Source: Tubiluchus corallicola
Taxonomy: Eukaryota > Animalia > Priapulida
NCBI GenBank assembly: GCA_030141605.1
Contig: JAQGDQ010002389.1
Coordinates: 1 to 64,000 of the forward strand
Length of the DNA: 64,000 bases
Reading direction: 5' to 3'
The position numbers and the translations under genes are program-made. Below, in pieces: positions 1,321-63,226 of the stretch. Under the pieces are notes generated by a model, which did not search any database, was not told the origin of the DNA, and saw nothing but the letters and a program-made list of their open reading frames with translations. Each line of letters begins with the position of its first letter. Within the stretch, counting starts at the first letter, position 1.

Positions 1321-1345
1321 AAACTGTTGAGAGAGGGAAGCTATT

Positions 1346-1789: not shown

Positions 1790-1796
1790 GGTAAGT

Positions 1797-3587: not shown

Positions 3588-3605
3588 GAAAGGAGCTTTG
3601 TAAAA

Positions 3606-14261: not shown

Positions 14262-15686
14262 CTACATGCTGCTGCTGGAAATGCTCGCTTTAGCAGCCTC
14301 ATAAACAGACTCTACAATTTGAGGAGTCGCTAAATCTTGCCCCCAAAAATACTCTTGAGACAAAAAGGCCTTAATACCTGCTTTTAAATCTCCCCGGGTT
14401 TGCTGTTTAATCTGTTTTATTTTTTCTAACACAGAATCACTGTCTCGAGCTGGAATAGCAGCAGAACTGGCATGTTGACCTGTATAAAATAAATACCATG
14501 CAGCAAGCGCCTTGCTCATAACAGGTGGTGGTGTCTTTTTATCTTCTAAATAAGCCATAAAACGAGGTAAATTACGAGCCCTGAACTTTGCAATAGAGTT
14601 CAAACTAATATCATACCATGCATGCTGAATATAAGGATTAGAAAAACGCTGAAGTACAGAATCGGCAAAAGCTTTCGCTTTGGCGCTATCCTGCGAAATA
14701 TAAGGTAAAACCTCATTGGTTAAAAAGGATTCCATTATATCTTGATAATATTTCTGCGTTAGAGTTTTATTGACATACTTTTCCCCTTTAATCAGTGCTA
14801 TAGGCGCTAATACCGTATGAGCTCCATTTAATATAGCAACCTTTTGCTCTTTATAGGATTTTAAATTATCCGTAACAACTACATTAAGCCCTGCTTCTAC
14901 AAAGGGTATGATAGGATCAGCACCGCCTTTCGTTTTTTCAACCACCAATGAATAAAAGAACTCTGTCGCCACAATAAAAGAATCTTCATACCCATTTTTA
15001 ATATTGATATCTTCTGCCAAAGCAGCTGGGTATCCCGGAACAATACGATCTACCAAGGTACCAAAAAACGTGTTTTTTGTTTCAACCCAGCTTGCGAAAT
15101 CCTCACATAAATTCCACTGTTTAGCATATCGCAATACATATTTTTTTAGTATTTGCGCATTATTATCAATTAATTCACAGGGGAAAATTTGAAATCCAAG
15201 AGCTTGCGTTTTGCCAGTATTATCAAAACGGTGCCAAAGTAGCTGTGTTAGCTTTGCAGGAAAACTGGCCGCAGGGGAATCAGATAATTGACAAGCCTCA
15301 TCATAGGCAATGCCCGCTTCTGTCGTATTGCTAAAAATAACCTGATAATCTGTATTAAGCGCTAAAGATAAAAAAGCATCAAACTGTTGATAAGGGGATA
15401 ATTCATCACAAACACATTCAATAACCTCTTGTTGATTGAATTCTTTCCCCTGTTCATCCAATCCCTGAACAAGAACCGTATATAAACCATCTTGATCCCG
15501 TAATGTTTTTTCTGCTGCCATATTAATAGGTCGCACAACGGTAACACCCCAGTCTCCATTTGTCTTTTTATTGACTTGCTGCACTTGCCAATCCATAAAT
15601 GCACGTAAAAAATTACCCTCACCAAACTGTATAATTCTTGGGGTATAGGATTTTGCCTTATAAACAGCCCGTGTTAATTGCCTCAT
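14262..15686 (-). CDS. uxaB: Tagaturonate reductase (altronate oxidoreductase)
   Basis: IIQFGEGNFLRAF, SNTTEAGI, SFPAKLT, PCELI, LVDRIVPGY, KVAILNGAHT, RFSNPYI. Confidence 0.93.
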   Translation of the reverse strand: MRQLTRAVYKAKSYTPRIIQFGEGNFLRAFMDWQVQQVNKKTNGDWGVTVVRPINMAAEKTLRDQDGLYTVLVQGLDEQGKEFNQQEVIECVCDELSPYQQFDAFLSLALNTDYQVIFSNTTEAGIAYDEACQLSDSPAASFPAKLTQLLWHRFDNTGKTQALGFQIFPCELIDNNAQILKKYVLRYAKQWNLCEDFASWVETKNTFFGTLVDRIVPGYPAALAEDINIKNGYEDSFIVATEFFYSLVVEKTKGGADPIIPFVEAGLNVVVTDNLKSYKEQKVAILNGAHTVLAPIALIKGEKYVNKTLTQKYYQDIMESFLTNEVLPYISQDSAKAKAFADSVLQRFSNPYIQHAWYDISLNSIAKFRARNLPRFMAYLEDKKTPPPVMSKALAAWYLFYTGQHASSAAIPARDSDSVLEKIKQIKQQTRGDLKAGIKAFLSQEYFWGQDLATPQIVESVYEAAKASISSSSM

Positions 15687-16128
15687 ATTTTTTACTCCTA
15701 CAATTAAATAACCTTTAAAAATTCATGAAAACACCCTACTGAATTATAAAACAGCCACATTAAATTTCTAAATATTGCTGCCATTAGAGTATAGAAATGT
15801 AATAAGGATACTGTTTTTATATTTCACAGTATTGAAATTTTAATTGCCAAACATTATATACCATAATAATTTAATTATAAAATAACTCAGGGCTATTACA
15901 ATAAAACAGTAGGCAGGAAATTAACGTATTATTGCCTTAAAGTAGCCTTTGTAAAAATAACATAATGAAAACATTGGAAGAAAGTTTAACAACTTGAACC
16001 CTAAAATAATTTGATATTGCTATTTTTTAAAATAGCGTCTAACTATAGTATAGTTAATTTATTAAGTTTATTCTACTAATCTGCCTAATAGATATTTAAT
16101 AATTCAAAAAAATTTAAGGTGAGTTCTG

Positions 16129-17136
16129 ATGAAACAGAGGGGAATTATGATAAAACATTTAAAATTTTTACTACTGTCTACAGTATGCCTGTCTATGGCA
16201 GCATTATCCGCATGTACTCAAAATGAGGAGCAAGAAGAAAAATACGTTATTAGAATCGCTTACGGTAATCAACCCGGTGAACCCACAGATTTAGGGGTGC
16301 ATGAATGGGCTCGACTAGCAAGAGAAAAATCAGATGGAAGAATTGAGCTGCAGCCATATCCTGCCTCTCAATTAGGTAGCCAAAAAGATATTACCGAGCA
16401 AGTCCGCATGGGCGCCAGCATTATTACTATTTCTGATGGCGGTTTTTTAATGGACTATTATGAAGATGTTGGTATTACCTATGGACCATACTTAACGGAA
16501 ACCTACGAAGAATATTTTAAATTAATGGATTCTCCATGGTTTGATTCTATTAGAAATGCCTTACGAGGAGAAAAATTTGAAGTTGTTACAGCTAAGTGGG
16601 TATATGGTACACGGCATCTTTTAACGAAGAAACCAGTCAACACTCCCGCTGACTTACAAGGGATGAAAATCAGAACCCCAAGTGCTACAACTTTAATCAA
16701 AACATTTGAGTTACTGGGAGCAACTCCATCTCCTATGCCATTAAGTGAAGTGTATCCTGCATTAATACAAGGAGTGATTGATGGCGTTGAAAACCCGTTG
16801 CCAGTACTTGCAGGAGCGAAACTTCATGAAGCTGCAAAATATCTGACAATGACTGGCCATATAAATAATGTATCGATTTGGATTGGTAGCGCTGATTATT
16901 TTGCCGATCTTCCAGCAGAAATTTCTGAAATTATCAAAGAAGCCGCTGAAGAAGCCGCTATGTTTACTTTCGGGTTAGTGCAAAAGAGTGATGAAGAAGC
17001 TCTGAATATAATGACAGAAGCCGGAGTCACTGTTCACACGCCGGATGTTAGTGCCTTTCGTGATCTCGCGATGCCAATTTATACCGAAATGTTTAAACCT
17101 AGCCTATATGAAACAACACAACAAAATACGAACTAA
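16129..17136 (+). CDS. dctP: TRAP transporter substrate-binding protein (DctP family), probable lipoprotein
   Basis: YPASQLG, DLQGMKIRT, EVYPALIQGVIDGVENP; N-terminal lipobox ALSAC. Confidence 0.9.
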   Translation: MKQRGIMIKHLKFLLLSTVCLSMAALSACTQNEEQEEKYVIRIAYGNQPGEPTDLGVHEWARLAREKSDGRIELQPYPASQLGSQKDITEQVRMGASIITISDGGFLMDYYEDVGITYGPYLTETYEEYFKLMDSPWFDSIRNALRGEKFEVVTAKWVYGTRHLLTKKPVNTPADLQGMKIRTPSATTLIKTFELLGATPSPMPLSEVYPALIQGVIDGVENPLPVLAGAKLHEAAKYLTMTGHINNVSIWIGSADYFADLPAEISEIIKEAAEEAAMFTFGLVQKSDEEALNIMTEAGVTVHTPDVSAFRDLAMPIYTEMFKPSLYETTQQNTN

Positions 17137-17147
17137 TCAATAACTTC

Positions 17148-17170
17148 AGGGTTGGCTATCAGCCAACCCT
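17148..17170 (+). promoter_or_regulatory. Intercistronic hairpin after dctP (mRNA stabiliser or partial terminator)
   Basis: Perfect 10-bp stem AGGGTTGGCT-atc-AGCCAACCCT. Confidence 0.6.
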
Positions 17171-17211
17171 ATTATTGTATAGCGCCCTATGACAAAGCTG
17201 AAAACTATCCC

Positions 17212-17685
17212 ATGATGAAACTGAAAAAAATAGCCTATAACATGGATGACATCGTTGCATGTATTGCTTTGCTGTCTTTAATAATTCTAACGATACTGGC
17301 TGTTATATTACGCTATGCTTTCAACAGCCCTATCCAATGGCAAGAAGAGATTTCCCTTCTTTTAGTTGTCTGGTTTGTTTTTATAGGAGCAAGTAGCACA
17401 ACAAAGCGTGAACTTCATATCTGTATTGACTCTTTAGTTTCTTATTTTCCTATAAGAATTCAACTTTTTTTAAGTTTATTTGTTTTGTTTTTTACAATTG
17501 CCGTATTGATAGTAGTTGCCTACTACGCAGGGCACCTTATGCTCAATACATCCCAATTAACAGATATTTTAAAAATACATTACTTTTTTATGTATTTACC
17601 GGTTTTGGGCGGAACACTGTTAATGATTTGCCACTCTACAGCCAATTTAATCAGCACGATTAAAACGATTATAGGTAAGGGTTAA
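17212..17685 (+). CDS. dctQ: TRAP transporter small permease
   Basis: VILRYAFNSPIQWQEEIS, HICIDSL; four TM segments. Start moved to ATG 17212, downstream of the hairpin. Confidence 0.88.
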   Translation: MMKLKKIAYNMDDIVACIALLSLIILTILAVILRYAFNSPIQWQEEISLLLVVWFVFIGASSTTKRELHICIDSLVSYFPIRIQLFLSLFVLFFTIAVLIVVAYYAGHLMLNTSQLTDILKIHYFFMYLPVLGGTLLMICHSTANLISTIKTIIGKG

Positions 17686-17687
17686 GT

Positions 17688-18968
17688 ATGTGGGCTTTAT
17701 TTTTTATCTTGTTAGTAACCCTTATTTTATTTAATGTACCTATTTTTATCGCATTGCTCGGAGTAGGGCTCATCTTTACTCTTAGCGTCCCAGATGCTTC
17801 TCTGTCTATCTTCGCACAACAATTTATTTCTGGTACACAAAGTATACCTTTATTAGCTATCCCATTTTTTATTATGGCCGGCGTGTTTATGAATTATACC
17901 GGCATTACACGAAGACTGATGGACTTCTGTTGCGCGGCTTGCTCTGGTATCCGTGGCGGATTAGCACAGGTAAATATTGTACTAAGTACTATGATGGGTG
18001 GGCTTTCCGGATCTAATATAGCCGACGCCGCTATGATGTCTAAAATATTAGTACCAGAGATGGAAAAAAATGGCTTTAATCGCCCATTTTCCTCGGCAGT
18101 TACAGCATCCAGCGCTTTGATTACCCCTATAATTCCTCCTGGAATTGCCTTAATTGTATATGGTTTTGTTGGTAATGTCTCTATAGGCAGACTTTTTATG
18201 GCTGGCATTATGCCTGGCCTGCTCTGCGCTGTCAGCTTAATGGTGCTTGCTGCTTATCTAGCTCCTAAAAATGGCTATATCCCTCCTGAAGAGTCCTTTA
18301 AAGCAAAAAAAGTATTATCATCTGCTGTGGATGCTTTTTTAGCGCTGCTGATGCCAGTAGTTATTATTGGTGGAATACGATTTGGCATATTTACACCAAC
18401 AGAAGCCGGAGCAATCGCAGTAGGATATGCTTTTTTCCTAGGTCTTATTGTCTATAGAGAAACAAGCTGGAAAGATATTAAAAAAGGGCTGATCGAAACC
18501 TTGGCAACAACAACATCCGTCGTTATTATTATTGCTGCTGCCGCTGCTTTTTCATGGATTTTAACATGGGAAAGAGTACCCCATACTATTGCAGAGCTTA
18601 TCCTTACCTGGATAGATAACCCTTTTTATTTTCTGCTGTTTATCAATGTTCTGTTATTACTTATCGGTATGTTTATAGAAGGCAATGCGGCTATGTTGGT
18701 ATTAGTTCCGATTTTAATGCCTATTGTACGGCAATTAGGGATTGATGAAGTCCATTTCGGCATCATTGTTGTGTTTAATATGGCTATTGGTACATTAACC
18801 CCTCCTATGGGCACAATTATATTTACGACCTGTTCTATTACAAAAACAGATACATTACAGTTTTTAAAAGCGATGATTCCTTTTTATGCATTGCTTTTTG
18901 GCCTGTTATTCTTAATTACATATATTCCTCAAATAAGCCTGTTTTTACCAAACTGGGCTTTTCAATAA
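17688..18968 (+). CDS. dctM: TRAP transporter large permease
   Basis: LLAIPFFIMAG, GGLSGSNIADAA, PIIPPGIALIVYG, FTPTEAG, TPPMG. Confidence 0.93.
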   Translation: MWALFFILLVTLILFNVPIFIALLGVGLIFTLSVPDASLSIFAQQFISGTQSIPLLAIPFFIMAGVFMNYTGITRRLMDFCCAACSGIRGGLAQVNIVLSTMMGGLSGSNIADAAMMSKILVPEMEKNGFNRPFSSAVTASSALITPIIPPGIALIVYGFVGNVSIGRLFMAGIMPGLLCAVSLMVLAAYLAPKNGYIPPEESFKAKKVLSSAVDAFLALLMPVVIIGGIRFGIFTPTEAGAIAVGYAFFLGLIVYRETSWKDIKKGLIETLATTTSVVIIIAAAAAFSWILTWERVPHTIAELILTWIDNPFYFLLFINVLLLLIGMFIEGNAAMLVLVPILMPIVRQLGIDEVHFGIIVVFNMAIGTLTPPMGTIIFTTCSITKTDTLQFLKAMIPFYALLFGLLFLITYIPQISLFLPNWAFQ

Positions 18969-18986
18969 TTAAATTAGGATGAAAAA

Positions 18987-20003
18987 ATGAAAGCATTAGT
19001 TTGCCATAAGCCCAATGATATATCTTATGTTGAAGTAGAAAAACCCACCCCACAAGCAGGAGAAATATTATTAAAAGTTGCAGCTGTCGGAATCTGTGGC
19101 ACAGATATCCACGCCTATTTAGGCAAACAACCCTTTTTTTCCTACCCTCGTATTTTAGGCCATGAGATCAGTGGCTCTATAGAAGCAGTAGGGCAAGGCG
19201 TTAAAAAACAAATTGGAAAAAAAGGAATTGTAATCCCTGCTATAGCCTGCGGCGCCTGCTCGGCTTGTCGTGTCGGAAAACCAAATTGTTGCGAATCGAT
19301 TTCTGTAATGGGGGTACATCAAGACGGTGGTTTCCAGGAATATATAACCGTGCCGGAAAAAAATATACTTATAGTACCGGATAATCTTTCCTTCTCTGCC
19401 TGTGCTCTGATTGAGCCTTTTGCAATCGCTGGCCACGCTGTGCGACGAGCAAATGTTGCGGCTACAGATAAAGTCCTTGTCGTCGGCGCTGGCGCCATTG
19501 GCATTGGTGTAGCAACTATTGTTAAATCCTTAGGAGCCGAAGTCATTGTAGCAGAAGTCTCTAAGGAGCGCCGAGAACATATAGAAACCCGTTGCCAAAT
19601 CTCTACATTAAATCCACTAGATGAGAAGTTTCAAGATATTTTAAAAAAAGCCTTTGACGGCGTTCTACCGAATATATTATTAGACGCTACAGGGAACAAG
19701 GATTCCATGTCAAACAGTGTTCATTATATTTCCCATGCGGGAAGAATTGTTTTTATTGGCTTATACCAAGGTAACTTAGAATTGGACGATCCTACATTTC
19801 ACAAAAAAGAAACGACCTTATTGGCATCCCGTAATGCCAATAAAGAAGACTTTCAACAGGTAATTGATATGTTTCAAACAGGAGCATTACAAGAAAAAAT
19901 GATGAAAAACCAAGAGTTTTCTTTTTCTACATTTGGAAACAGCTATCATAAAGATGTTGCAAGCAATCCCTGCCTTGTTAAAGGGGTCGTTTTGTTTGAT
20001 TAA
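18987..20003 (+). CDS. Zn-dependent dehydrogenase, L-galactonate 5-dehydrogenase (LgoD/YjjN)-like
   Basis: GICGTDIHAY.GKQPFFSYPRILGHE, CGACSACRVGKPNCC, GVHQDGG, FHKKETTLLASRNA; linked to uxaB. Confidence 0.75.
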   Translation: MKALVCHKPNDISYVEVEKPTPQAGEILLKVAAVGICGTDIHAYLGKQPFFSYPRILGHEISGSIEAVGQGVKKQIGKKGIVIPAIACGACSACRVGKPNCCESISVMGVHQDGGFQEYITVPEKNILIVPDNLSFSACALIEPFAIAGHAVRRANVAATDKVLVVGAGAIGIGVATIVKSLGAEVIVAEVSKERREHIETRCQISTLNPLDEKFQDILKKAFDGVLPNILLDATGNKDSMSNSVHYISHAGRIVFIGLYQGNLELDDPTFHKKETTLLASRNANKEDFQQVIDMFQTGALQEKMMKNQEFSFSTFGNSYHKDVASNPCLVKGVVLFD

Positions 20004-27957: not shown

Positions 27958-28716
27958 TTATACAATTTTTTCGCTTTTCCACAAAGATAAAGTGTGCAAT
28001 AAAGACTCTTTATTATGCCCTTCTATAATATAATTCCCTCTCCATGATATATCTTGTAAAACAGAATAGATTTTTTGGCTTAAACAAATAATCGACAGAG
28101 AGGTAGAATAGGATTGTAATTTCGACTGGAGAAAAAGAGACTTCCATATTTCCGCCGTGCGCGTTGAGTAAAAAAGAACAGAAATAAACTTTTCAGACTG
28201 CACAAGAGCAGAGAAATCAGAAGAAAAAGAGCAAGAAGAAATCGTGCGATACATACGATGATATCGATAAGAAATAGCGTGCGTTGAAAAATAAGCAAGA
28301 GGATTTCCTGTAATATGATAACCACATAGATGAAGAAGAATAGGGGAGGGAATTGGCTTTAAAAAATCTGAAATTTTCTGCAAAAGCATATCCTGATCAC
28401 CCCCCCCTTCAAAAACAAGCTTAAATCCATACGCAGCCGCCGCAGCCGCAGTCGCGCTGCTAACAGCAAAAACAGGAAGAGAAACAAGATGCCTTTTCTC
28501 TTCAGGAGAAAGCAACGCTTTTTGTAAAGCCCCCACCGTATGACGGCTTGTGATCATCAGCGCATCAATTGATAACAGAGAAGGAAAAGGAGCGCCAATA
28601 TAGCGTATTTTCATCATAGGCTCTAAAATTGTTTCATAGCCGGCTTTCTCTAAAAAAGAAGAGAGTATCCTGCCATCTTCAATCGGGCGAGTGATAATTA
28701 CGAATCGAGCTTTCAC
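27958..28716 (-). CDS. hemD: Uroporphyrinogen-III synthase (divergent)
   Basis: IITRP, ITSR, FAVSSATA, FYSTRTA; directly after hemC. Confidence 0.82.
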   Translation of the reverse strand: MKARFVIITRPIEDGRILSSFLEKAGYETILEPMMKIRYIGAPFPSLLSIDALMITSRHTVGALQKALLSPEEKRHLVSLPVFAVSSATAAAAAAYGFKLVFEGGGDQDMLLQKISDFLKPIPSPILLHLCGYHITGNPLAYFSTHAISYRYHRMYRTISSCSFSSDFSALVQSEKFISVLFYSTRTAEIWKSLFLQSKLQSYSTSLSIICLSQKIYSVLQDISWRGNYIIEGHNKESLLHTLSLWKSEKIV

Positions 28717-28718
28717 AA

Positions 28719-29678
28719 TTATACCTCTCCTTGATAGGCAGGTAAAAGAGAAGAGGGAGCTTCTTTCTTGATCTCCCGCGCTGACTCAATCGCGACATGA
28801 AGCGACTCTTTTAAAGAGCAAAAACGCTCAACTCTGAAAATATTTTTTCCATATTCATCCGATAAAAAAGCTTGGAAATGAATTTCCTCCCCCTTATAAC
28901 AAGCAAAAGCCCCTAAAGGAGTACTACAGGATCCTTCCATTTCTTGAATAAAAGCACGCTCCATTAAAACACAAGAAGCCGTCTTTTCATCATGCAGCAC
29001 AGAGAAAAAACGCTCTATATCAGCAGTAGCATGGCAACGGCAGGTAATCGCAAGAGCTCCCTGACCGGCAGATGGAATAAAATCTTCTACCGCTAAAGGA
29101 AGCGTGGTAAACTTTAAATCTAAATTCAGGCGCTTTATTCCAGCGCACGCCAGAACAATAGCATCATACTGCTCGGCTTTTAGTTTTTCTAAGCGACTGT
29201 TAATATTGCCCCTTAAAGGAATGATTTTCAGATCAGGGCGCTGCGATAATAACAAAGCTTTACGGCGTAAAGATGTCGTGCCAATAATGCTCCCGTCAGG
29301 AAGATCAAAAAGAGTCTCTATAGCATGCTGAGAAATAAGAGCATCACGTGCATCATCTCGACGAAGAATAGAGCAGATTTTTATTCCCTTTGGTAAAATT
29401 GGAGGAATATCCTTTAAAGAATTCACGCCAACATCAATCTCTCCTGCCAATAAAGACTCATCGATTTCCTTGGTAAATAACGCTTTTCCACCAATATCAA
29501 ATAACGGTCTATCTGTAATTATATCCCCTGTTGTTTTAATAAAGCTGATTGGTAAAGAATCTTCATGAGAAAGGCAGGACCATCGCTCACGAAGTTGATT
29601 GATAACTATTGAGGTCTGCGCGACCGCTAAAGCACTTCCACGAGTCCCAACGCGGATAAGGGGGCTTTCTTTATTCAT
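28719..29678 (-). CDS. hemC: Hydroxymethylbilane synthase
   Basis: GTRGSALA, GGKALFTKEI, SLKDIP, LRGNINSRL, EGSCSTPLG. Confidence 0.96.
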   Translation of the reverse strand: MNKESPLIRVGTRGSALAVAQTSIVINQLRERWSCLSHEDSLPISFIKTTGDIITDRPLFDIGGKALFTKEIDESLLAGEIDVGVNSLKDIPPILPKGIKICSILRRDDARDALISQHAIETLFDLPDGSIIGTTSLRRKALLLSQRPDLKIIPLRGNINSRLEKLKAEQYDAIVLACAGIKRLNLDLKFTTLPLAVEDFIPSAGQGALAITCRCHATADIERFFSVLHDEKTASCVLMERAFIQEMEGSCSTPLGAFACYKGEEIHFQAFLSDEYGKNIFRVERFCSLKESLHVAIESAREIKKEAPSSLLPAYQGEV

Positions 29679-35918: not shown

Positions 35919-36248
35919 TTACAAAGGCTGCTTTTTACGCTCATAGCGCTTGTAAATCCTCTTTTGGTAACGATGATAGATAAAAATTGATAGTATGGTC
36001 TGTATAAAAAACCAAAAAACAAAAAAAATCCCCATTAAACGCTTTTTTTCCGCTCTAGGCTCGATAGAAGCCCTCTGAGACCAGACAGAATATTTGATCA
36101 CTTCCTCGGAAACAGCTGGCTTAAGCTCTTCTGTTATCTCAACATAAGAGGGAACAAAATCATCTTCCTGTGCATACGCTTCTGAAAAGAAACTTACGAT
36201 AAAAAAAGATAAACTTAGCACTATAACAATATTTTTTTTCATTCGCAT
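35919..36248 (-). CDS. Miniature haem-less cytochrome c1 derivative (signal peptide plus C-terminal anchor only)
   Basis: Third gene of the pet operon, ATG 1 nt after the petB stop with GAGGA RBS. Signal peptide ends ..EAYA. C-terminal W..EPRAEKKRLMG-TM-KRIY resembles c1 WAAEPxLExRKxMG-TM-KRxW. No CXXCH and no Cys. Confidence 0.7.
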   Translation of the reverse strand: MRMKKNIVIVLSLSFFIVSFFSEAYAQEDDFVPSYVEITEELKPAVSEEVIKYSVWSQRASIEPRAEKKRLMGIFFVFWFFIQTILSIFIYHRYQKRIYKRYERKKQPL

Positions 36249-36249
36249 A

Positions 36250-37458
36250 TCAGGATTTCCTCTTCTTACGTAAAAGAGCAACCGTAAGGGAAGGGGGAAT
36301 AGAGGCTTTTTTCTCAAGTGGCGTTATCCAATAAACAAGAATGAAAAAACTGAAATATCCCAAAAGCGCGATCCGCGTCAGCCATATCCATATATCAGCT
36401 TGCGGCATTGCTCCACAGATGAAAATTGTTAGGAAACAGACTAAAAAAAATCGAAGGAGCGCTTTGTAAGCAGGGCGAAAAATCGCACTATTATTAGGAG
36501 AATGATCAAGCCACGGCATAAAAAATAAAATCCCAACCATTGCTACGCATAAAATAAGAGCAAAAAATGGAGAAGGAACAGCACGAATAACAGAAAAAAA
36601 GCTCCAAAAATACCACTGAGGGCGAGCTGATAGAAAAGGAGAAAGAGGGTTAGACTCTGCGATAAAGCTGTCAGATAAAGATAAAATATCGCCAGAAAAC
36701 CAGAAAATCAGCCCCATAAGAATTGTCAGATATAAATTGATCGCGCAAAAGTCACGCACCGCAAACCATGGATAAAAAGGAACGTGATCCTGAGTAGGGA
36801 GTGTAATTCCTAAAGGATTATTAATACCTGCTTTGTGAACTGCAATAACATGAATAATAGTAATGATAATGATCAGAAAAGAGAAAAAAAGATGAAAGCT
36901 ATACATTCTCGCTAAAATTGCCTCATGAGGAACAGAGCCTCCCAAAACAAAAGAGGCAAGCGCTTCACCAATAAAAGGAACAGATGACAGTAAATGATAC
37001 AAGACAGTGGCTGCCGCGACCCCATTATGACTCCAAGAGAGAATTGATCCGAAAAAAGACGCCATAAATAAACAACAAAGAAGGAGCAAACCCGTAATCC
37101 AGACAATTTCTCGCGGCGCTTTATAACTGCCATAATAAAAAGCTTTGAAAAGGTGTAAGCCTAATATTATGAATAATAAAGAAGGAACAGTCTTGTGAAT
37201 TGCGAGAATAAACCATCCCCAAGAAATAGTTTCCTTGAAATCTAAAAGCGTTTGAAACGCATAATCCACATATGGAACATAATATAAAGAAAGTGAAAAC
37301 CCACTCAGAAAAAGAAAAAAGAGCGACAAAGAAGCTAATGCGCCTGTTGTCCATAACCAGTTAAGATTACGAGGCATACGGTGTTTCTTGAAATAGTTGA
37401 ATAATGGCTTTAAAGGAAAACGTTTTTCCAACCAATAAAAAAATAAAAAATATCTCAT
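36250..37458 (-). CDS. petB: Cytochrome b of a bc1-type complex (divergent Qo site)
   Basis: PRNLN, two H-x13-H haem pairs, YYGSYKAPRE, NNPLGI, PQWY, PWLD, FRP. Confidence 0.93.
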   Translation of the reverse strand: MRYFLFFYWLEKRFPLKPLFNYFKKHRMPRNLNWLWTTGALASLSLFFLFLSGFSLSLYYVPYVDYAFQTLLDFKETISWGWFILAIHKTVPSLLFIILGLHLFKAFYYGSYKAPREIVWITGLLLLCCLFMASFFGSILSWSHNGVAAATVLYHLLSSVPFIGEALASFVLGGSVPHEAILARMYSFHLFFSFLIIIITIIHVIAVHKAGINNPLGITLPTQDHVPFYPWFAVRDFCAINLYLTILMGLIFWFSGDILSLSDSFIAESNPLSPFLSARPQWYFWSFFSVIRAVPSPFFALILCVAMVGILFFMPWLDHSPNNSAIFRPAYKALLRFFLVCFLTIFICGAMPQADIWIWLTRIALLGYFSFFILVYWITPLEKKASIPPSLTVALLRKKRKS

Positions 37459-37480
37459 CCGTATTGATTCACATTCATTT

Positions 37481-38044
37481 CTATGAGCTTTCCTCTGTTA
37501 TACGAATTGTGCTTTCATTCAGAAAATGCCAGGGAAGCGTATCTAAATCCCGCCTTGCTGGCCCTTTAGTCACTTTGCCATATTTGTCAAAATAAGAACC
37601 ATGACACCCACAAGACCAGCCTGACCACTCCCCTCCATGCACACGATTATACTCAACATGTAATGGACAGCCTAAATGCGTACAAAGCCCAATCACAAGC
37701 TGCCATTCTGAAGTATCCTCGCCATGACGAATAATATAAACAGGCTTGTTACGCCATTGTATAACTTTCCGATCACCAGACGCTATATCGGAAATATCAA
37801 TATCAATAAAAGCAGGAGAAGAAAATTCCAAAGCCGCTTTATTAACAACAGAAGAAGGAAATAAACTTCTTAAAAAAGGCCAGCTTAATAAAATAACACT
37901 TAAACTGCTCATAATCTGAATTGTTTTTTTTAACACATCTCGCCGAGCCGCCAGATTATCATTCGCAGGAGTTATAAATAATTTGTTAAAAAGCCTTCTT
38001 GTACGAGATAAAGAAGACGGTTTGTTATGGCGAAAAGTACTCAT
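37481..38044 (-). CDS. petA: Rieske iron-sulfur subunit of a bc1-type complex
   Basis: Tat-like RRDVL plus TM; WRNKPVYI; CTHLGC and CGCHGS boxes; GPA. Confidence 0.92.
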   Translation of the reverse strand: MSTFRHNKPSSLSRTRRLFNKLFITPANDNLAARRDVLKKTIQIMSSLSVILLSWPFLRSLFPSSVVNKAALEFSSPAFIDIDISDIASGDRKVIQWRNKPVYIIRHGEDTSEWQLVIGLCTHLGCPLHVEYNRVHGGEWSGWSCGCHGSYFDKYGKVTKGPARRDLDTLPWHFLNESTIRITEESS

Positions 38045-48874: not shown

Positions 48875-49484
48875 CCTTACAGAAAAATATAATAGGCTTT
48901 TATAATCCTGCCACAAATAAGCTATGGCATTTTAAAAAGATTAATATTCCAAAGAGTAGGGTGCTCTTAATTCTCATTTTTCTCATGCGCACTAATGAGA
49001 GAGCTGCTATAGGGTAAAAACATTTTCTGTAAACTGTTGAAGAGAATTCTGACAGCAAAAATATTGTCTGCCATTGTTTATTGCTGCTTAACCGAAAAAT
49101 GGCTGGTGAAAACAAACAGCCAGATAGTGTATAGATTCTTCGAAAAAATTAAGGCTGTGGATTGTGATCGTTTAGAGATTCAAAATAATATTAATTTACA
49201 GCATTAAAATCCATCTCATATAGTTAAAAAATAAAATAATAATTTATTCTTAATTATTTGCAATTTATGTATTATTTATAATTTAACATAATATAAATTA
49301 TGCGACAATTTTCAAGCTATAAAAGAGCGAACAATAAAGTATGTATATTGAAGCGTTATCGCTATAGAATTAAAATAATAACAAACTTCAAGAGTGTTAT
49401 GTCACCTATTACCATCCAAAATACTTTTTTGACGAAACTTCTATAAACCCTCTCTTGTAATACTTTCTTTATTACCAGCCTATA

Positions 49485-49720
49485 TTTGATATAGCTATAT
49501 AAATCCTTTTCACTTGGATATATTTTCTCTAATAGGATTACTAGCTGGTGATAGTAATAGAAAATATAGCAAGATATCCTCTGCCTTTCTGAACAAACTT
49601 GTCCTTCTTTTCTCTTGTAGAAATATGGCATTGCTTATGAAGATGAACATATTTTAGCCAGCCTAGATAACAAGCCTTCCACTTCTTATATCAAAAAATA
49701 TCCGCATTGATAGTGCTATA
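49485..49720 (-). pseudogene. Possible highly decayed IS630-family transposase fragment
   Basis: Broken frames read TINADIF..W and ISNAIF..LLYFLLLSPASNPIRENISK*KGFI, resembling MDNAxFH..LLFLPPYSPDLNPIExxWxxLK. Confidence 0.3.
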
Positions 49721-49721
49721 T

Positions 49722-50155
49722 GAAGCTGGTTTGGTATATATGGCATCTTTCAGAAATTTTAAACAATCCTGAAGTAATGGGTTGGATTTTAGAGAGTTTG
49801 GTTAAGCTTTACCAGTATGGATATGATGCACGGAGGAAAATGTTCTTATTCCTATGCAGACGGATGGAAAGGATCTTACAGGTCAGATTTTTCAGTGGGA
49901 TGAATATTATGGGAAGAAAGGAAGAAAGTTCCAAAGATCAACTTTATTATTGGACCATGCTATTCCCTATGATCGCGGGTATTCATTGACAAATGGTATA
50001 CGTCTATGATGTGTGCTCCGGAAGATTCCTAAGTGATTTGGCATGGGAAATATTGGTGTTAATCCATATGCTGTTCATTATTTAAATATGAAAACCATAC
50101 TTGATGATCCTAAGGCTATTTTTCTATTGATCGATATTTTTCATGCTACAAAACA
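49722..50155 (+). pseudogene. Decayed inverted partial copy of the PL2 pectate lyase gene
   Basis: With two frameshifts and two TGA stops it reads GLVYM/HLSEILNNPEVM..QYGYDA/EENVLIPMQTDGKDLTGQ..LLLDHAIPY..DDPKAIFLLIDIFHATK, matching about 54727-55157 on the minus strand. Confidence 0.93.
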
Positions 50156-51918
50156 AGCTGACAGCGAGTAAAATATTTCCGACTACAAGTGGATATTGAT
50201 GCTATTTGTGCCATTTTTATTCTTACACGCCGTGAGAACATACTTTAATTTGTGTATAACTACATATGCGCTATATCATTAGAAAAGCCCATAAATAATA
50301 AGACATTCCCTATCTTCATACAATCTAATTAGAGTCCGACAACACACCCTTTTCGTATTGCTGTAGAATTTTTGTTGTAGGAGCGTAAACTCCCAAATAG
50401 CGAGCATACACCAATATGATCATGAACATAAAAAGCTAACGGCTAGCATATCAAGTCTTAGTTATCCTCTTATTGGGCGTTTTCTTATGTTTTTGGCTTT
50501 TATAAGCCAGTATGCAGTCATGCTATCATAACATTATCCCCTCTATCCTAATATTAAAGTGAGCTTCATTCCTCTTGATCATTGTAATACTTTGTTTCTT
50601 ATGAACGGGAAAGAGTTTAGAGCCATAAATCTGATGAGCAGACAATCCTTGAATATAATCAATTTATAGCGTATTGGCCGTATTTACGTCTCTTTCCAAG
50701 CAGCCGCAGAAGTAGCATTAAAGTTCGTTAGGAAAATTATATTACTGTAAAAAGAATTATAGAAAGTAAATATATTTAAAAAACATAAATATAACCAACG
50801 TCTTATTTGCCTTCTAAAGGATTCAACAGACTTTTTTCAATACATAAAGCATCTTCAGAAACATGCATATTCCTGCGGTTTTCGGCAGTGAGTTAACTTT
50901 CTTCAGGTCAGAAGCAGAAACGCCTATTAAAAATAGAGCGAATGCTTACGGATTTTGGAAGGGGTAATTATATGGTTTATAATATATGTGCGCTTTCTAA
51001 GATTCAGTTGCATTAAGTTATTGGGAATCCATGTTTTTGGAAGAATTTATTTTGCCGTTACCCATGAGGATATAGATGGAATTTACACAGGAAGTGATGA
51101 TGTAGATACTATGGTATTGATTGTTTTGATAAGTTCACAGACGGAAACAACGAGTATTTCTATTGGCCAGGTAGCTGATAATAGCGATTTTATTGCATCT
51201 GGAGAGGGATTTATGCTTCCTTCCTTAATTCCTTCTTAAAATATTATTCACCTTGATAGCGTGATCTTAAAATACTGACATTATTAATGCCACTTGCCTC
51301 TATCATAAAGATCTAAGAGCGTTAAAGCCATAATAGATAAAAGATATGAAAATTGCATTAAAAATCCCCTACTCCTGCCTCTTTTTCCTTTTAAGGCAAA
51401 AGAATTCATTGAAGTGAAAAACGGGCCTTTGTTCTTAAGGAATATTTTATTTTCTGAAAGAGGGTCTTTGGAAAAAGAGAGAAGATATAAAGATAGGAAC
51501 GATACAAAAAGAATTGGCATGTTTATACATATATAACAACACAATAAACCATTATATATAATGCAATATATTAATATCGTTCTTTTTTTAAAAACAACGC
51601 GATAAAGTTGGTTGTTTTCTACATAAAACATCACAAAAATAACTATATAACAAATGGATATAAATATTTATCAATGTAAAACATTAATAAATTAAAAAAC
51701 ATCTCATTAAACAACATATGAATAGCATTTTTCTTCAATATTTTTCCATTACTTCAATCACGTATAAATCAATATAAAAATATCTTGGAAATAGAGCTAT
51801 AACTTACCTTCTTATTTAAATGTCTCTACAGGCATCTTTTAGCTACCACACTCATCCCCTCTCCTTTTTCTTCTTTGTTCCTTGGCTTGTTTCGATTTTA
51901 TTCATGCTTGAGGCATGA

Positions 51919-51935
51919 TTGGCATCCTTTTTGCT
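51919..51935 (+). promoter_or_regulatory. Sigma54-type -24/-12 promoter
   Basis: TTGGCATCCTTTTTGCT has exact GG-N10-GC spacing, 47 nt upstream of ATG 51983. Confidence 0.6.
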
Positions 51936-51982
51936 CCTATAAAAACAACTCACAAACATAATTAAGCAAAAGGATCATAAAT

Positions 51983-52630
51983 ATGAAACAGGGCGTTATA
52001 AAAAAAATCTCTTTTATCACACTTTTATCTTTATTGATTTCTTTTTTACAAATTACACAATCCTATGCCGCAAAAGAAAATAATGGCTTTATTTTCAATA
52101 CAGAGGCTAAAAATTTACCAAAAGAAATAAACTTCCCTAAATGGGATTATGCTTTTGAAACCTCTATGAAAAAACTTGCAGACAAAACAGAAGAAAAAAC
52201 ATTTAAAAAATGGAAAGAATTTATTGAAACAGCCCAAACATACCAACGGCATAAACAGTTAATGGCTGTAAACGCATATGTTAACAAACTGAAATATGTT
52301 AAAGATATCAATAACTGGGGAAAAAAAGATTATTGGGCTTCTATAGACGAAACACTGAAAAAAAATAGTGGAGATTGCGAAGATTACGCCATTTTAAAAT
52401 ATATGACATTAAAAGCCTTAGGATGGGATATGAAAAATATAACACTGCTTGTCGTTAGAAATACAAAAGGAAAAAACTTTATACACGCCGTTTTAGCTAT
52501 TCACTCTCCACAAGACAATAAAACATATATCATGGATAACAGATATTCTTATGTTTATCATGATAAAAAAGTTAGCAGTTATGAGCCTCTCTACGCTATT
52601 AATGAAAATAATTTATGGTACTATAATTAA
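51983..52630 (+). CDS. Periplasmic transglutaminase-like cysteine peptidase (BTLCP / peptidase C93, LapG-like)
   Basis: Signal peptide; VNAYVN, D..NWGKKDYWAS, GDCEDYAILKY, HAVL, YIMDN (Cys-His-Asp triad). Confidence 0.92.
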   Translation: MKQGVIKKISFITLLSLLISFLQITQSYAAKENNGFIFNTEAKNLPKEINFPKWDYAFETSMKKLADKTEEKTFKKWKEFIETAQTYQRHKQLMAVNAYVNKLKYVKDINNWGKKDYWASIDETLKKNSGDCEDYAILKYMTLKALGWDMKNITLLVVRNTKGKNFIHAVLAIHSPQDNKTYIMDNRYSYVYHDKKVSSYEPLYAINENNLWYYN

Positions 52631-54449: not shown

Positions 54450-56156
54450 TTAACGTGTTACACGATAAAAAATATTTCTATCATATGTTGTTTTTACACT
54501 TCCGTCTTCAAAAAGATACTCTCCGTGAATATAAGCACTATCAGATAAATAAAGTGGAATATCTTTCATCTCCTCTAATGCCGCAATAAGAGAAACTAAA
54601 GCAAACGCCTCTATAGAGGCAAATCTTGTATAAATATGATCAGAAGACTCTATAAAATACCCTTTTATATAACGATTCTTTAAAATATTTTCAGCAATAC
54701 GAAGTCCTAAATTCAAGTAAGCTTTTCGCTTTGTCGCATGAAAAATATCAATCAATAGAAAAATAGCTTTAGGATCATCAACTGTGGTTTGCATATTTAA
54801 ATAATGAACACCATGTGGATTAGCACCAATATCTCCCATCTCAAATCCCTTAACCATCTGTCGCAGCACACGCCATAGACGTATGTCCTTGGCTAATAAA
54901 TACCCACGAGCATAGGGAATAGCATGATCCAACAATAAAGTCGATCGTTTGAATTCTCTTCCTTTCTTCCCATAATATCCATCCCGCTGAAAAACTTGTC
55001 CCGTAAGATCCTTGCCATCCGTCCACATAGGAATAAGAGTATTTTCCTCAGCATCATATCCATATTGAGCAAACTTGACTAAACCCTCCAAAGCCCAATT
55101 CATCACCTCGGGATTGTTTAAAGCTTTTGAAAGATGCATATACACTAAACCAGACTCAGATAAAATAGTCTTCTGGTTTCTAAATAAAACGTTCCCCTCA
55201 TAGGCAACAGAACCAAACTCAGGTCCAAACTGCCGCTGCGCACGATCACCATACTTGGAGCTTGTATCCTTATCATTCTTAGGAGGCCAATCACGGCGCC
55301 TCGGAGAAGAATATTGATACACAGGAAGACCTGTCTCAGGATGGCGTGCCATAACATATTGTTTCGCTAAATGATGCCCCCAGGCTGCCGCTTGCTCATC
55401 CCTTGTGTATTTATAAAGCATACTTGCTGCGTAAATCAAATCGCTCCCAGCATTAATAAATGTCAATCCCTTTGTCTCTGCCATCTTAGGAAGAGAGTTC
55501 TGAACAACATCCACTTTTATAGCCTTGAAAATATCATCATTATAAACCTTGCTGTAAGAGCCATGGCGATTCATATCAAGCGTCTTCCAATCATCAACAT
55601 GCGCATTCCAAAGCGCTTTTAAAAGTCTAACTGTCTTGTCAGACTCAATCTGGTAGAAAAAATCATAATAAGGAAAATGGTTCTTTAATTCATGAACCAT
55701 ATTCTTATCATCTGGCCCTTCAAGCTCTAACGTATCTAAATTAATAAAACGATGTCCCCCCCAATACAAAAGACCATTCTCATCCTGATAATGATCAAAC
55801 ATATATTGAGTGATTTCTTTCGCTTTCTGCTCGTATAGATCCTTCCCTGTAATCCGTGATAAAATAACCAGCGTTTTCAAAAGCGTCTGCTGATTCGCAA
55901 AATTAGTGATCACAGCTTCACGACCATCTTCAAAACGCCATTTGACAAGCTCTCCCGTATCAATATTAATTCCATCCGCAAGCAAAGGAGAAGGCATGAC
56001 TGAACTATAACCATTTTTGAAAATTGTCTCCATAGCCTGCTCAACAGTTTGCACAATTTTTATTTCCCTTTCTGTAGCAAACCCTTGTGACCATCCCACA
56101 ATAAAAAACATACCGAAACAAAATAATAAGCCTTTTCCTGATTTTCTAAAGAACAT
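54450..56156 (-). CDS. Polysaccharide lyase family 2 pectate lyase (PelW-like) with signal peptide
   Basis: PLLADG, NFANQQ, YWGGHRF, VHELKNH, WNAHV, ETKGLTFINAG, GDRAQRQFGPEF. Confidence 0.92.
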   Translation of the reverse strand: MFFRKSGKGLLFCFGMFFIVGWSQGFATEREIKIVQTVEQAMETIFKNGYSSVMPSPLLADGINIDTGELVKWRFEDGREAVITNFANQQTLLKTLVILSRITGKDLYEQKAKEITQYMFDHYQDENGLLYWGGHRFINLDTLELEGPDDKNMVHELKNHFPYYDFFYQIESDKTVRLLKALWNAHVDDWKTLDMNRHGSYSKVYNDDIFKAIKVDVVQNSLPKMAETKGLTFINAGSDLIYAASMLYKYTRDEQAAAWGHHLAKQYVMARHPETGLPVYQYSSPRRRDWPPKNDKDTSSKYGDRAQRQFGPEFGSVAYEGNVLFRNQKTILSESGLVYMHLSKALNNPEVMNWALEGLVKFAQYGYDAEENTLIPMWTDGKDLTGQVFQRDGYYGKKGREFKRSTLLLDHAIPYARGYLLAKDIRLWRVLRQMVKGFEMGDIGANPHGVHYLNMQTTVDDPKAIFLLIDIFHATKRKAYLNLGLRIAENILKNRYIKGYFIESSDHIYTRFASIEAFALVSLIAALEEMKDIPLYLSDSAYIHGEYLFEDGSVKTTYDRNIFYRVTR

Positions 56157-56167
56157 TTTTCCAATCC

Positions 56168-57289
56168 TTACGTTAACTTCTCCTGACCTGTATTTAAATT
56201 TCGCAAAATTTCCGCATAAGCCATCATGAAAATACCCACCCCTTTTCCGTCATTCTGAACAATAGGCTCTGAAATATAATAATCAAAAGAACCATCACGG
56301 TACGGATAAGTATCATCTATTCTCCCTAAACCAGCCATAACACATATATTTTCCAGCTGCTCATCCTTTAAAAACAGATCAACAACACTGTTAAAACTTT
56401 CCTGACCATACGAAAAATAAACCTCCGGCAAGTAACCAAGGCGCACTCCCTTCATTAAAGTATAGGAAAACATCAAAGAAGATGAGACTTCTATATAATT
56501 CCCTTCACGAGACTTCTGATCTATAACCTGATACCATAATTGCGTCTTATCATCCTGAAACGATAAAATGGACTTCATCGCCTCTCGCAACAAAAGCTCA
56601 AGATAACGATAATCTTCAAAAACCGTTTCTGACATAGCTTCCAAAATGTCAACCAGAGACATAACATACCATCCCATCGCACGCCCCCAAAAACATGGCG
56701 ATACACCCGTTTTAGGGTGAGCCCACCTCTTAAGCCGAGCTTCATCATAACCATGGTAATAAAGACCACTCTTCTCATCACGCATGAAAGAGTTAACATT
56801 ACGAATTTGACCAGTAATATCATAATAATGCCTCTTTCCAGTCCATAACGTATCATAACGCATGTAAAAAGGCTGCCCCATATACAAACCATCCAACCAA
56901 ACCTGATGAGGATAGGATTTTTTATGCCAGAAATTTCCAGACTGTGTACGAGGATGAGATTGAAGCTGGCTATAAAGTGTATCAAGAGCAATCTTAAACT
57001 TCTTTAGAGGATTTTCTTGATAAAGCGATACCAATGTATAACCAGGCTGAATATTATCAATATTAAAATCATCAAGCTTATAAGTCGGAATATCCCCGTT
57101 TGAACGAATCAGCTGATCAAAATAATGAAAAACAAAATCATAAAATTGCCGTTCCTTTGTAATCGTGTAAATATCAAAACTTCCCTTTAAAACACACCCA
57201 TCCTCATAACACCATTGACCATCCTTATAAAAAGAATAATTTTGAATATAGGCGTTGATAAAATCAGCTGATTTCTGAATTCTGCCCAT
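56168..57289 (-). CDS. GH105 unsaturated (rhamno)galacturonyl hydrolase (YteR-like)
   Basis: WCYEDG, NIDNI, FWHKK.YP.QVWLDGLYM, FWGRAMGWY, ND.KGVG. Confidence 0.92.
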   Translation of the reverse strand: MGRIQKSADFINAYIQNYSFYKDGQWCYEDGCVLKGSFDIYTITKERQFYDFVFHYFDQLIRSNGDIPTYKLDDFNIDNIQPGYTLVSLYQENPLKKFKIALDTLYSQLQSHPRTQSGNFWHKKSYPHQVWLDGLYMGQPFYMRYDTLWTGKRHYYDITGQIRNVNSFMRDEKSGLYYHGYDEARLKRWAHPKTGVSPCFWGRAMGWYVMSLVDILEAMSETVFEDYRYLELLLREAMKSILSFQDDKTQLWYQVIDQKSREGNYIEVSSSLMFSYTLMKGVRLGYLPEVYFSYGQESFNSVVDLFLKDEQLENICVMAGLGRIDDTYPYRDGSFDYYISEPIVQNDGKGVGIFMMAYAEILRNLNTGQEKLT

Positions 57290-58865
57290 AAGATATTTCT
57301 CCTAATAATTCTGTATTCTCTTGAATAATTGAGTTTCCAACCGCATTTTCTACTAACACATTTTCTAAAAACAACCCTTCTACATTATTGAGATATAACC
57401 CCATAGAAGATACAGGATCAAAAAAGCTCATCATTGCAGGATATCCACTAGAAGCATCCGCTTTCATAGAAACACGATAGTTTTTTATAACCAAATTTTT
57501 TATCTTTTTTTCCGGCAAACCATAAACAAAACCGGCCGCGTACTCCGCACCATGGCAAAGGATATCCTCAAGAAAAATATTCTTGATCTCCGGTGTGCCG
57601 GAATCAACCGGTAGAATCTCCTTTGTCCATATATATTCCGACTCTCCATTCGGATCACAGCAATAGAACGCATTAATGACAAAAGGCGTGCAAACAGAGT
57701 CCATAACGATATTCTTAATCGTGATATTATCAATAATTCCATCCTTACCACGACCACGGCACGTTTTAATACGAATACCCCTGTCTGTTTGATTCATCAC
57801 ACAATCTTTGACGGAAACATCTTTCACACCTCCGGCCATCTCGCTGCCAATAACAACGCCGCCATGACCCGATTCCATTAAGCAATTGGAAATCAAAAGA
57901 GAAGAAGAAGGGCAGCGGAGACGGCGCCCTAAATAAATCTTTCCCGACTTAATGGCAATGCAATCATCCCCAACAGAAAATCTAACTCCAGAAATACGAA
58001 CCATATGGCACGATTCAGGATTAATACCATCTGTATTTGGAGAACTATGTTGATTCTTGATAAATAAATTAACAAAAGTAAGAGACTCGGAAAAAATGGG
58101 ATGAACCGTCCAAGAAGGAGAATGAGAAAGCATAACACCCTCCACCAGAATATTCCGACATTTTGAGAAATAAAGTAAACGAGGACGCCAAGCGTCTATT
58201 TTCTCTTTCGGGGAATGCCACCAATTTTCAAAGCTGGCATTCCCATGAATAGACCCCTCTCCTGTAATCGTAACATCCTCTATATCAACCCCTGTTAATA
58301 AAGAGGCGAAACAATCCAGTGGATTTCCTTCCCACGATCCCAGATATTCTTCCTGGCTATAAGAATAATCTTCCAGTAAACCTGGTAAAATCGGATAAAA
58401 ATCACGATGAAAAAGCCCTTTTAATTCACTCCCTTTTTCAAGCAAAAGTGTAATATGACTCTTTAAAAAAAGAGGTCCGCTCATATATGTTCCTGGAGAA
58501 AAAACAATACAGCCATTTTTCGGGCAAGAGCTAATCGCTGCCTGCAAAGCCGCTGTGTCGTTCGATCTGCCATCTCCTACAGCACCAAACTTTTTGACAG
58601 AAACAACAGAAGTTTCCTCCTTGGTCTGAAAGGAATATGAAAATCTTTCCCCCTTATAGGCAACAGAGATATTATACAAACTTCCTGGGCTTAAGCGAAA
58701 AAGTGTAAAAACATTCTGTCGCGTCTTAAAAGCAAAAGAATTTCCAAGAAAAATATCTTTTTCTTCCACCGTCTTAAAACATCCCTCACCAGACAGCTCA
58801 AAACTTGCTGTGCGTGATGTCGTACTAATCAACTCTAAAGATAATGTCATAGAGAGAAACCCCAT
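57264..58865 (-). CDS. GH28 polygalacturonase (probably cytoplasmic, exo-acting) with short N-terminal beta domain
   Basis: FGAVGDG, NTDG, GDDCIAIKSG, GHGG..IGSE, RIKT catalytic motifs; no signal peptide. Confidence 0.93.
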   Translation of the reverse strand: MGFLSMTLSLELISTTSRTASFELSGEGCFKTVEEKDIFLGNSFAFKTRQNVFTLFRLSPGSLYNISVAYKGERFSYSFQTKEETSVVSVKKFGAVGDGRSNDTAALQAAISSCPKNGCIVFSPGTYMSGPLFLKSHITLLLEKGSELKGLFHRDFYPILPGLLEDYSYSQEEYLGSWEGNPLDCFASLLTGVDIEDVTITGEGSIHGNASFENWWHSPKEKIDAWRPRLLYFSKCRNILVEGVMLSHSPSWTVHPIFSESLTFVNLFIKNQHSSPNTDGINPESCHMVRISGVRFSVGDDCIAIKSGKIYLGRRLRCPSSSLLISNCLMESGHGGVVIGSEMAGGVKDVSVKDCVMNQTDRGIRIKTCRGRGKDGIIDNITIKNIVMDSVCTPFVINAFYCCDPNGESEYIWTKEILPVDSGTPEIKNIFLEDILCHGAEYAAGFVYGLPEKKIKNLVIKNYRVSMKADASSGYPAMMSFFDPVSSMGLYLNNVEGLFLENVLVENAVGNSIIQENTELLGEISYGQNSEIS

Positions 58866-58896
58866 ACCAAAGAATAGTTATTATATGCGCTAGATC

Positions 58897-60189: not shown

Positions 60190-60211
60190 GAGTAATTCCT
60201 CCCATAGAATC

Positions 60212-61348: not shown

Positions 61349-61377
61349 AATATTCTCCTTTATTAGTAGCTTTAAAA

Positions 61378-62289: not shown

Positions 62290-62292
62290 ATC

Positions 62293-63174: not shown

Positions 63175-63226
63175 CTTTATACCTCCCTTTAATTTATGAC
63201 TCGTTTATAGCGCCAACTCTACTTCT

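Follow-up and report, generated by a model that had tools for sequence, protein, structure and literature searches.

The pet operon described here encodes a divergent Rieske iron-sulphur protein, a cytochrome b altered mainly at its quinol-oxidising side and, in the place of cytochrome c1, a short open reading frame (ORF). Reading from sequence, we give an even chance to the interpretation that this petA-petB-petC operon has been rebuilt into a Rieske/cytochrome b module that lacks c1 and no longer runs the canonical Q cycle. The Q cycle is textbook biochemistry, and within cytochrome b conservation is normally highest at the Qo site. For this operon, a canonical Q cycle with bifurcation and c1 as acceptor appears unlikely, because it lacks the acceptor haem and has other residues at the catalytic Qo positions. 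As far as a single sequence can tell, the operon is a novel variant of a known enzyme. We refer to the 64 kb of DNA analysed as the window and to its cytochrome b as the query.

The three pet genes follow one another on the minus strand in the standard petA-petB-petC order (Table 1), and all three frames are open. The ORF in the petC position most likely begins with the ATG at 36248, 1 nt past the petB TGA and with AAGAGGAAA upstream, an arrangement consistent with translational coupling; petA and petB start without an obvious Shine-Dalgarno sequence. The surroundings are housekeeping genes, with rplM-rpsI divergent from the operon 384 bp upstream and genes for a PPIase and an ABC ATPase downstream. 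The GC content of the operon equals that of its neighbours and is even over the region. In a synteny comparison, the short flanks of the reference pet loci contained neither L13 nor the PPIase that lies downstream here. A promoter and terminator scan gave counts no higher than the shuffle level, and Rfam gave zero matches in the window.

Table 1. Features of the pet operon; positions are those of the window.
Feature	Position	Strand	Size or state	Basis
petA: Rieske iron-sulphur subunit	37481..38044	-	187 aa, divergent	Pfam Rieske, TIGR01416
petB: cytochrome b	36250..37458	-	402 aa	Pfam Cytochrome_B and Cytochrom_B_C
petC-position ORF, likely cytochrome c1 remnant	35919..36248	-	109 codons	operon position, architecture, c1-tail profile match
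Junction of petB stop and downstream ORF start, with Shine-Dalgarno-like AAGAGGAAA	36246..36264	-		sequence inspection

The closest matches to the ArgRS encoded in the window, from Terasakiella and Thalassospira, reach no more than 56% identity, and those to the SdhA no more than 74%. Together with the distances of cytochrome b given below, these values indicate that the host is an alphaproteobacterium of the Rhodospirillales type without a sequenced close relative. In public sequencing runs, identical DNA was present in one possible source sample, and two 151-base pieces were present in a second study. The contigs from public runs were identical to the window and so provided no variants for dN/dS. 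Among the runs listed as containing this DNA, none was an RNA run.

The petB product is recognised as a cytochrome b by Pfam Cytochrome_B (PF00033, 126.5 bits) and Cytochrom_B_C (PF00032, 74.1 bits), both above cut-off, and matches the chains of solved bc1 complexes at E = 1e-58 (HMMER). The sequence-only reading had described two H-x13-H haem pairs, retained N-side and Qi motifs, altered P-side strings and five replacements in yeast numbering, and all of these were found as described. In HMMER alignments to solved bc1 structures the haem ligands are His88/His102 and His189/His203. The same alignments place the retained N-side strings at PRNLN (29-33), YYGSYKAPRE (108-117), AVHKAGINNPLG (206-217), PFYPWFAVRD (227-236), PWLD (315-318) and FRP (327-329). 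The altered P-side strings are LAIHKTVPS (85-93), GSILSWSHNGVAAATV (137-152) and PQWYFWSFFSVIR (280-292). Yeast chain 3cx5_C served for numbering, with query 21 corresponding to residue 15 and query 377 to 368 (an offset that grows from 6 to 9 along the chain), and gave S138 for Y132, A148 for W142, A149 for G143, Q281 for E272 and F288 for Y279. In Rhodobacter sphaeroides numbering the same replacements are Y147 to S138, W157 to A148, G158 to A149, E295 to Q281 and Y302 to F288, so that the Qo motif PEWY reads PQWY in the query. The cd1, cd2 and ef segments align without gaps to R. sphaeroides except for one residue before NPL.

At the Qi site, His208 and Asp236 are kept and a Lys is replaced by Arg235, at positions that we take to bind quinone. 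The N-terminal Qi stretch WTTGA was not counted as a further eroded site, because bacterial sequences of known structure also vary at that stretch. Leu85 takes the place of the conserved P-side Arg that precedes the haem bL ligand. Since this Arg is presumably a haem-propionate partner, the haem wire of the query may be altered as well. The AlphaFold2 model of the protein (pLDDT 83.9, pTM 0.84) has eight transmembrane helices together with the cd1, cd2 and ef helices.

We measured the distribution of the changes over the protein against a reference set of 113 cytochromes b, which are those of the 120 matches listed that were 380-470 aa long. The query is on average 31.8% identical to these references (maximum 35.3%), while the references are 61.3% identical among themselves. 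Columns conserved in at least 90% of the 113 references number 146, of which the query keeps 73. When these columns were divided at the midpoints of the helices in the AlphaFold2 model, the query kept 30/90 on the P (Qo) side and 43/56 on the N (Qi) side (Fisher p = 5e-7). Divergence is therefore not uniform across the protein. The kept and lost columns follow a gradient through the membrane, with 22 kept and 3 lost in the N loops, 21 and 10 in the N halves of the helices, 16 and 25 in the P halves, and 14 and 35 in the P loops. A prior split at expected helix limits agrees (P, 31 kept and 60 lost; N, 42 kept and 13 lost; p = 1.1e-6).

The asymmetry is outside the range seen in the other cytochromes b. 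In a leave-one-out comparison over the 113 references, the most skewed difference between the P and N kept fractions was -0.10, compared with -0.42 for the query. We also scored 28 cytochromes b from a phylum-wide genome sample, which are 53-64% identical to the alphaproteobacterial set and three of which carry PVWY. These kept 0.88-1.00 of the P columns and 0.86-1.00 of the N columns, without asymmetry. Branch lengths estimated by maximum likelihood on a fixed tree (LG+G4, 58 thinned references) gave a distance between query and references of 4.94 substitutions per site at P columns against 0.82 among references, a ratio of about 6. At N columns the values were 2.94 and 1.70, a ratio of about 1.7. 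Among the references, the rate of evolution on the P side is about half that on the N side, and the query reverses this order. The claim that cytochrome b is eroded on the Qo side only thus stands for the strong P-side bias and falls for the word "only", as the N side is also more distant and has 13 conserved residues changed.

The replacements at the lost P-side columns are not grossly non-conservative, with a mean BLOSUM62 score of -0.13. Several residues of the P-side scaffold are kept (F135, G137, L140, W142, V152, P161, G164, P280, W282 and Y283), although they are taken from the invariant columns of a 60-sequence alignment, all of which the query keeps by the way that set was made. A haem wire that is under selection would in addition need an entry or an exit at its P-side end. 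Because this scaffold, the Rieske ligands and the Rieske cluster fold are kept, and because of that need, the P side looks remodelled rather than dead. This tempers the proposal of the sequence-only reading that selection keeps the haem wire and the Qi site but not Q-cycle bifurcation. Its first half agrees with the kept ligands and N side, and its second half with the roughly sixfold faster P side and the apparent loss of the c1 haem domain; a P side that has simply been abandoned fits less well.

A remodelled P side could still oxidise quinol by bifurcation. In such a case the enzyme would be a true bifurcating quinol oxidoreductase whose Qo site is adapted to another quinone and whose Rieske protein hands its electrons directly to a carrier outside the complex. 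This is compatible with the kept P-x-W-Y scaffold of the Qo motif and the kept Rieske ligands and Tat motif. Published precedents also lend it some weight. According to the sections of PMC4122944 available, PEWY is found in over 99% of the cytochromes b of alphaproteobacteria and mitochondria, mutants of its Glu, the Gln mutant included, retain some activity, and the natural variants PVWY, PDWY and PPWF show the Glu to be replaceable in functional enzymes. The Chlorobium petCB operon has no c1 gene and uses cytochrome c-556, as stated in part of PMC10172866, and the Tyr-to-Phe change described below fits a Rieske protein of lower potential. However, the natural Qo variants are described in the same sections of PMC4122944 as lineage-specific, conserved within their lineage and paired with changes such as Glu253; the PVWY of beta- and gammaproteobacteria is accompanied by Glu at yeast position 253. 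The query lacks this Glu and has Ser262 there by count on the sequence, and the AlphaFold2 model is unsure at residues 259-269, which precede the PQWY motif. Moreover, 60/90 conserved P columns are changed in the query, whereas functional enzymes of the PVWY type keep 0.89 of them. We consider this explanation improbable. The string PQWY had 0 occurrences in the available text of the Qo-motif paper PMC4122944, and a literature search did not find 'PQWY' together with 'cytochrome b'.

The Rieske protein has diverged along with cytochrome b. The petA product scores 41.8 bits with Pfam Rieske and 106.2 bits with NCBIfam TIGR01416 (Rieske_proteo), for which the cut-off is 97.4. Its mean identity to 27 references is 32% (0.319), compared with 0.596 among the references, and it keeps 31/63 conserved columns. 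These are distributed as 21/31 in the cluster-binding fold and 10/32 in the remaining regions. The RRDVL twin-arginine (Tat) motif, CTHLGC, CxCHGS, the four cluster ligands and both disulphide Cys are kept. The changes include CPCHGS to CGCHGS, which replaces the box-II Pro with Gly, (H)Y to (Y)F, in which the Tyr that follows becomes Phe, and GPAP to GPAR. Twenty-seven columns are deleted after the IRHxx strand and before the first cluster box; the neck is about 7 residues longer than in the references. In PMC10172866, lower-potential Rieske proteins are associated with a Tyr-to-Phe change by the cluster, in which the hydrogen bond of the Tyr is lost. Because the cluster-hydrogen-bonding Tyr is Phe in the petA product, its cluster is predicted by analogy to have a lower potential.

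The third gene bears most directly on the electron acceptor. The ORF in the petC position encodes a signal peptide at residues 1-27 (...AYA|QE), 43 soluble residues, a membrane helix at about 71-92 and a basic tail. It has neither a CxxCH motif nor an axial-Met region, and it matched zero Pfam families even at E = 10, with PF02167 among those searched. A profile built from 30 c1 proteins aligned its positions 201-258 of 263 to ORF residues 34-95 with 12.4 bits, and a profile of the c1 C-terminus alone gave 15.2 bits. The stretch matched comprises ...FLxWAAEPxxExRKxxG and the anchor helix. The c1-profile score was reached by 0/1000 full shuffles, 0/1000 block shuffles and 2/1000 shuffles of the soluble part. 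The ORF was also the top match to the c1 profile when all six frames of the window were scanned (E = 0.0086), and the scan yielded no second c1-like stretch and no credible CxxCH ORF. By comparison, 26/30 reference loci have a separate CxxCH-bearing ORF after cytochrome b on the same strand. The other 4 comprise one open frame of 780 aa, which may be a fusion of cytochrome b and c1, one locus cut by a contig end, and two without a CxxCH ORF under what is a crude filter.

Further comparisons of this ORF gave weaker signals. BLASTP against two fused b-c1 proteins placed the best segment on the c1 tail at E = 0.5, and a search of the ESM Atlas gave a best score of 0.88 to unnamed clusters, a recognition below the mark. 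Complex prediction for cytochrome b with ORF residues 28-109 gave a score of 0.57, compared with 0.00 for the best of 3 controls, a pass that may reflect memory of solved bc1 complexes. The partner had a pLDDT of at least 58, and the runs shared at least 87% of contacts. The mark used is reached by 51/78 solved complexes and by 2/108 mismatched pairs. At scores of 0.60 or below, where this prediction lies, 5 of the 78 solved complexes reach the mark, and all 4 passing mismatches (of 180) fall there. Because of the operon position, the architecture and the modest profile score, the ORF is likely, on moderate evidence, a cytochrome c1 that has lost about 175 residues in frame, with the haem site and the axial-Met region among them.

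The apparent loss of the c1 haem domain and the replacement of catalytic Qo residues could also mean that the operon is a non-functional relic that is disappearing now that the cytochrome c branch is no longer used, with its frames still open because little time has elapsed. The weak ribosome-binding sites and the failure to find a close relative of the same form point in this direction too. We examined this by neutral simulation of petB. Reaching the same relative identity took about 373 substitutions and produced a mean of 13.2 stops; 0/300 simulations at this excess divergence stayed open, with at least 4 stops in every run. Stop codons are created by 4.6% of single-base changes in petB, and the remaining five frames across the gene contain 17-34 stops. 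The one-sided erosion, which would need continued purifying selection on the other side, the retention of all haem and cluster ligands, and the mild BLOSUM62 average of the lost P-side replacements likewise speak against a relic. We regard this explanation as very improbable.

Because the frames are open, the ligands and the invariant scaffold are kept and the Rieske cluster fold is better kept than the rest, the evidence indicates that the pet genes are under selection. This selection appears to retain the N side, the ligands and the fold, but not the residues that are generally taken to line the quinol site and to form the Rieske docking surface. The identity of cytochrome b to its references is 0.318 against 0.613 among the references. 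For SdhA the corresponding values are 0.630 and 0.634, with the caveat that the SdhA references are the best matches of the window's own SdhA, which flatters the first figure. By this comparison, the acceleration is confined to cytochrome b and the Rieske protein, and SdhA evolves normally.

Searches for relatives returned distant proteins. The top match to the cytochrome b in a set of 5.8 billion clustered proteins has 35% identity. Cytochrome b matches were obtained from 248/301 sampled genomes of the class, and none exceeds 37%; this tally includes one unpublished genome (G045), which entered no other comparison. A search with the Rieske protein gave one match only, at 28% identity, and a metagenome scan with cytochrome b gave 52 pattern matches and zero relatives. 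One sequence of this kind has been found, and purifying selection and any new P-side motif rest on that single sequence.

Extreme acceleration confined to particular genes is typical of duplicates, and the operon could be a divergent paralogue with a new function, in an organism that carries a canonical petABC elsewhere in its genome and keeps a normal bc1. Extra cytochrome b genes do occur, as some alphaproteobacterial genomes give 2-4 matches to the query. However, the operon has the standard gene order, sits among housekeeping genes next to rplM-rpsI and shares the GC content of its neighbours. The 301 sampled genomes, with their ceiling of 37% identity, also hold no family of similar paralogues that outscores the canonical genes. 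We find a paralogue rather unlikely.

The module retains much of the proteobacterial bc1 complex (petABC/fbcFBC; R. sphaeroides 5kkz/8asi, Pseudomonas aeruginosa 8smr). It shares the gene order, the eight helices, the 13-residue His spacing and a Rieske protein that matches TIGR01416, and the cytochrome b fold aligns with bacterial bc1 cytochrome b at a Foldseek TM-score of 0.87-0.89 (normalised to query length). It differs in that the query is 28-37% identical to any known cytochrome b, whereas canonical phylum-wide cytochromes b are 48-74% identical to an alphaproteobacterial one. It also differs in the PQWY motif, the replaced cd1 and ef residues, the absence of a haem-binding c1 in the window and a Rieske protein shorter by 27 residues.

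Two further systems are partly similar. The green-sulphur-bacterial petCB, as described in part of PMC10172866, is likewise a Rieske/cytochrome b pair without cytochrome c1, and its Rieske protein has a lower potential with cluster hydrogen bonds lost. That complex is, however, b6f-like: its fourth helix has a 14-residue His spacing, an eighth helix is absent, and PEWY is kept according to PMC4122944. The query, by contrast, is of the bc1 type, with 13-residue spacing in both His pairs, eight helices, PQWY and a c1-like anchor gene. Zymomonas mobilis, an alphaproteobacterium without cytochrome c oxidase, has also kept a bc1 operon whose classical role is unclear, as reported in part of PMC4148688; unlike the case here, it is described there with c-type cytochromes and a complete bc1. 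A literature search at the level of titles and abstracts for a truncated c1 or a bc1 without c1 found nothing similar.

In the rebuilt module that we propose, the third gene would be a c1 cut down to its signal peptide and membrane anchor and retained for a structural role. Electron exchange with the quinone pool would continue through haems bL and bH and the Qi site, and the outer pocket on the P side would, together with the Rieske cluster, have been adapted to exchange electrons with a partner or substrate other than c1. With the Rieske cluster as the remaining outer redox centre, the module would link the quinone pool through Qi, bH and bL to the periplasmic side, and selection would no longer maintain efficient bifurcated oxidation of ubiquinol to cytochrome c. 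More tentatively, and with less than an even chance, the operon may be a bc1 descendant without c1 and without canonical Qo oxidation that has been kept as a new kind of quinone-linked membrane enzyme, in which the bL/bH/Qi wire is joined through a rebuilt outer pocket and a lower-potential Rieske cluster to another partner or substrate.

With its reversed order of P- and N-side rates, the apparent removal of the c1 haem domain and its open frames, this operon amounts to complex III dissected by nature. Such a case could reveal the worth of the low-potential chain and the Qi site on their own, and which parts of the Rieske protein and of c1 serve assembly only. To bioenergeticists it would offer a ready-made multi-site Qo variant for expression and measurement. 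A further lesson could be how a core enzyme of respiration acquires a new use when the cytochrome c branch is dropped.

At the junction between petA, the divergent Rieske gene, and petB, the cytochrome b gene, a mini-ORF of 7 codons (MNVNQYG) begins 2 nt past the petA stop, and its TGA shares bases with the petB ATG in an ATGA overlap. No obvious Shine-Dalgarno sequence was seen at the petB start. The mini-ORF may serve as a relay that couples petA to petB, or it may be there by chance.

Fusions of cytochrome b to c1, 670-690 aa in length, are among the matches listed for the petB query (P0108, P0112, P0114, P0115, and P0120). The cytochrome b of reference locus L103 (genome G171) lies inside a 780-aa open frame that is perhaps another such fusion. 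In genome G001 a canonical cytochrome b was matched as two adjoining pieces, residues 4-206 and 205-401, and the c1 match sits in a 713-aa open frame.

The AT-rich stretch holds no ORF longer than 116 aa; a 310-aa protein without a family and a BTLCP-type transglutaminase-like protease flank it. The stretch could be the remnant of an island or a set of decayed genes.

Features of the window other than petA and petB
Feature	Position	Strand	Remark
sdhCDAB, complete	922-4388	+	
Mannitol dehydrogenase, TRAP transporter	14262-20003		further upstream than the pectin cluster
hemD (uroporphyrinogen-III synthase), hemC (porphobilinogen deaminase)	27958-29678	-	
Mini-ORF	37455-37478	-	7 codons
AT-rich stretch, roughly 3 kb	48900-52000		GC 0.28-0.32 versus about 0.38 elsewhere
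Pectin/oligogalacturonide utilization cluster	54450-64000	-	

The divergence of sdhCDAB is normal, with SdhA identity at 0.63 to its references versus 0.634 between those references, and the quinone pool looks ordinary here, as does at least one further quinone-linked haem-b enzyme, that encoded by sdhCDAB. Given hemD and hemC, the organism of the window probably makes its own haem. The pectin cluster comprises a periplasmic pectate lyase (PF06917, 646 bits), GH88, GH28, an ABC sugar transporter, and GH4; taken together with the mannitol dehydrogenase and the TRAP transporter, it suggests a lifestyle of growth on plant-derived carbohydrates.
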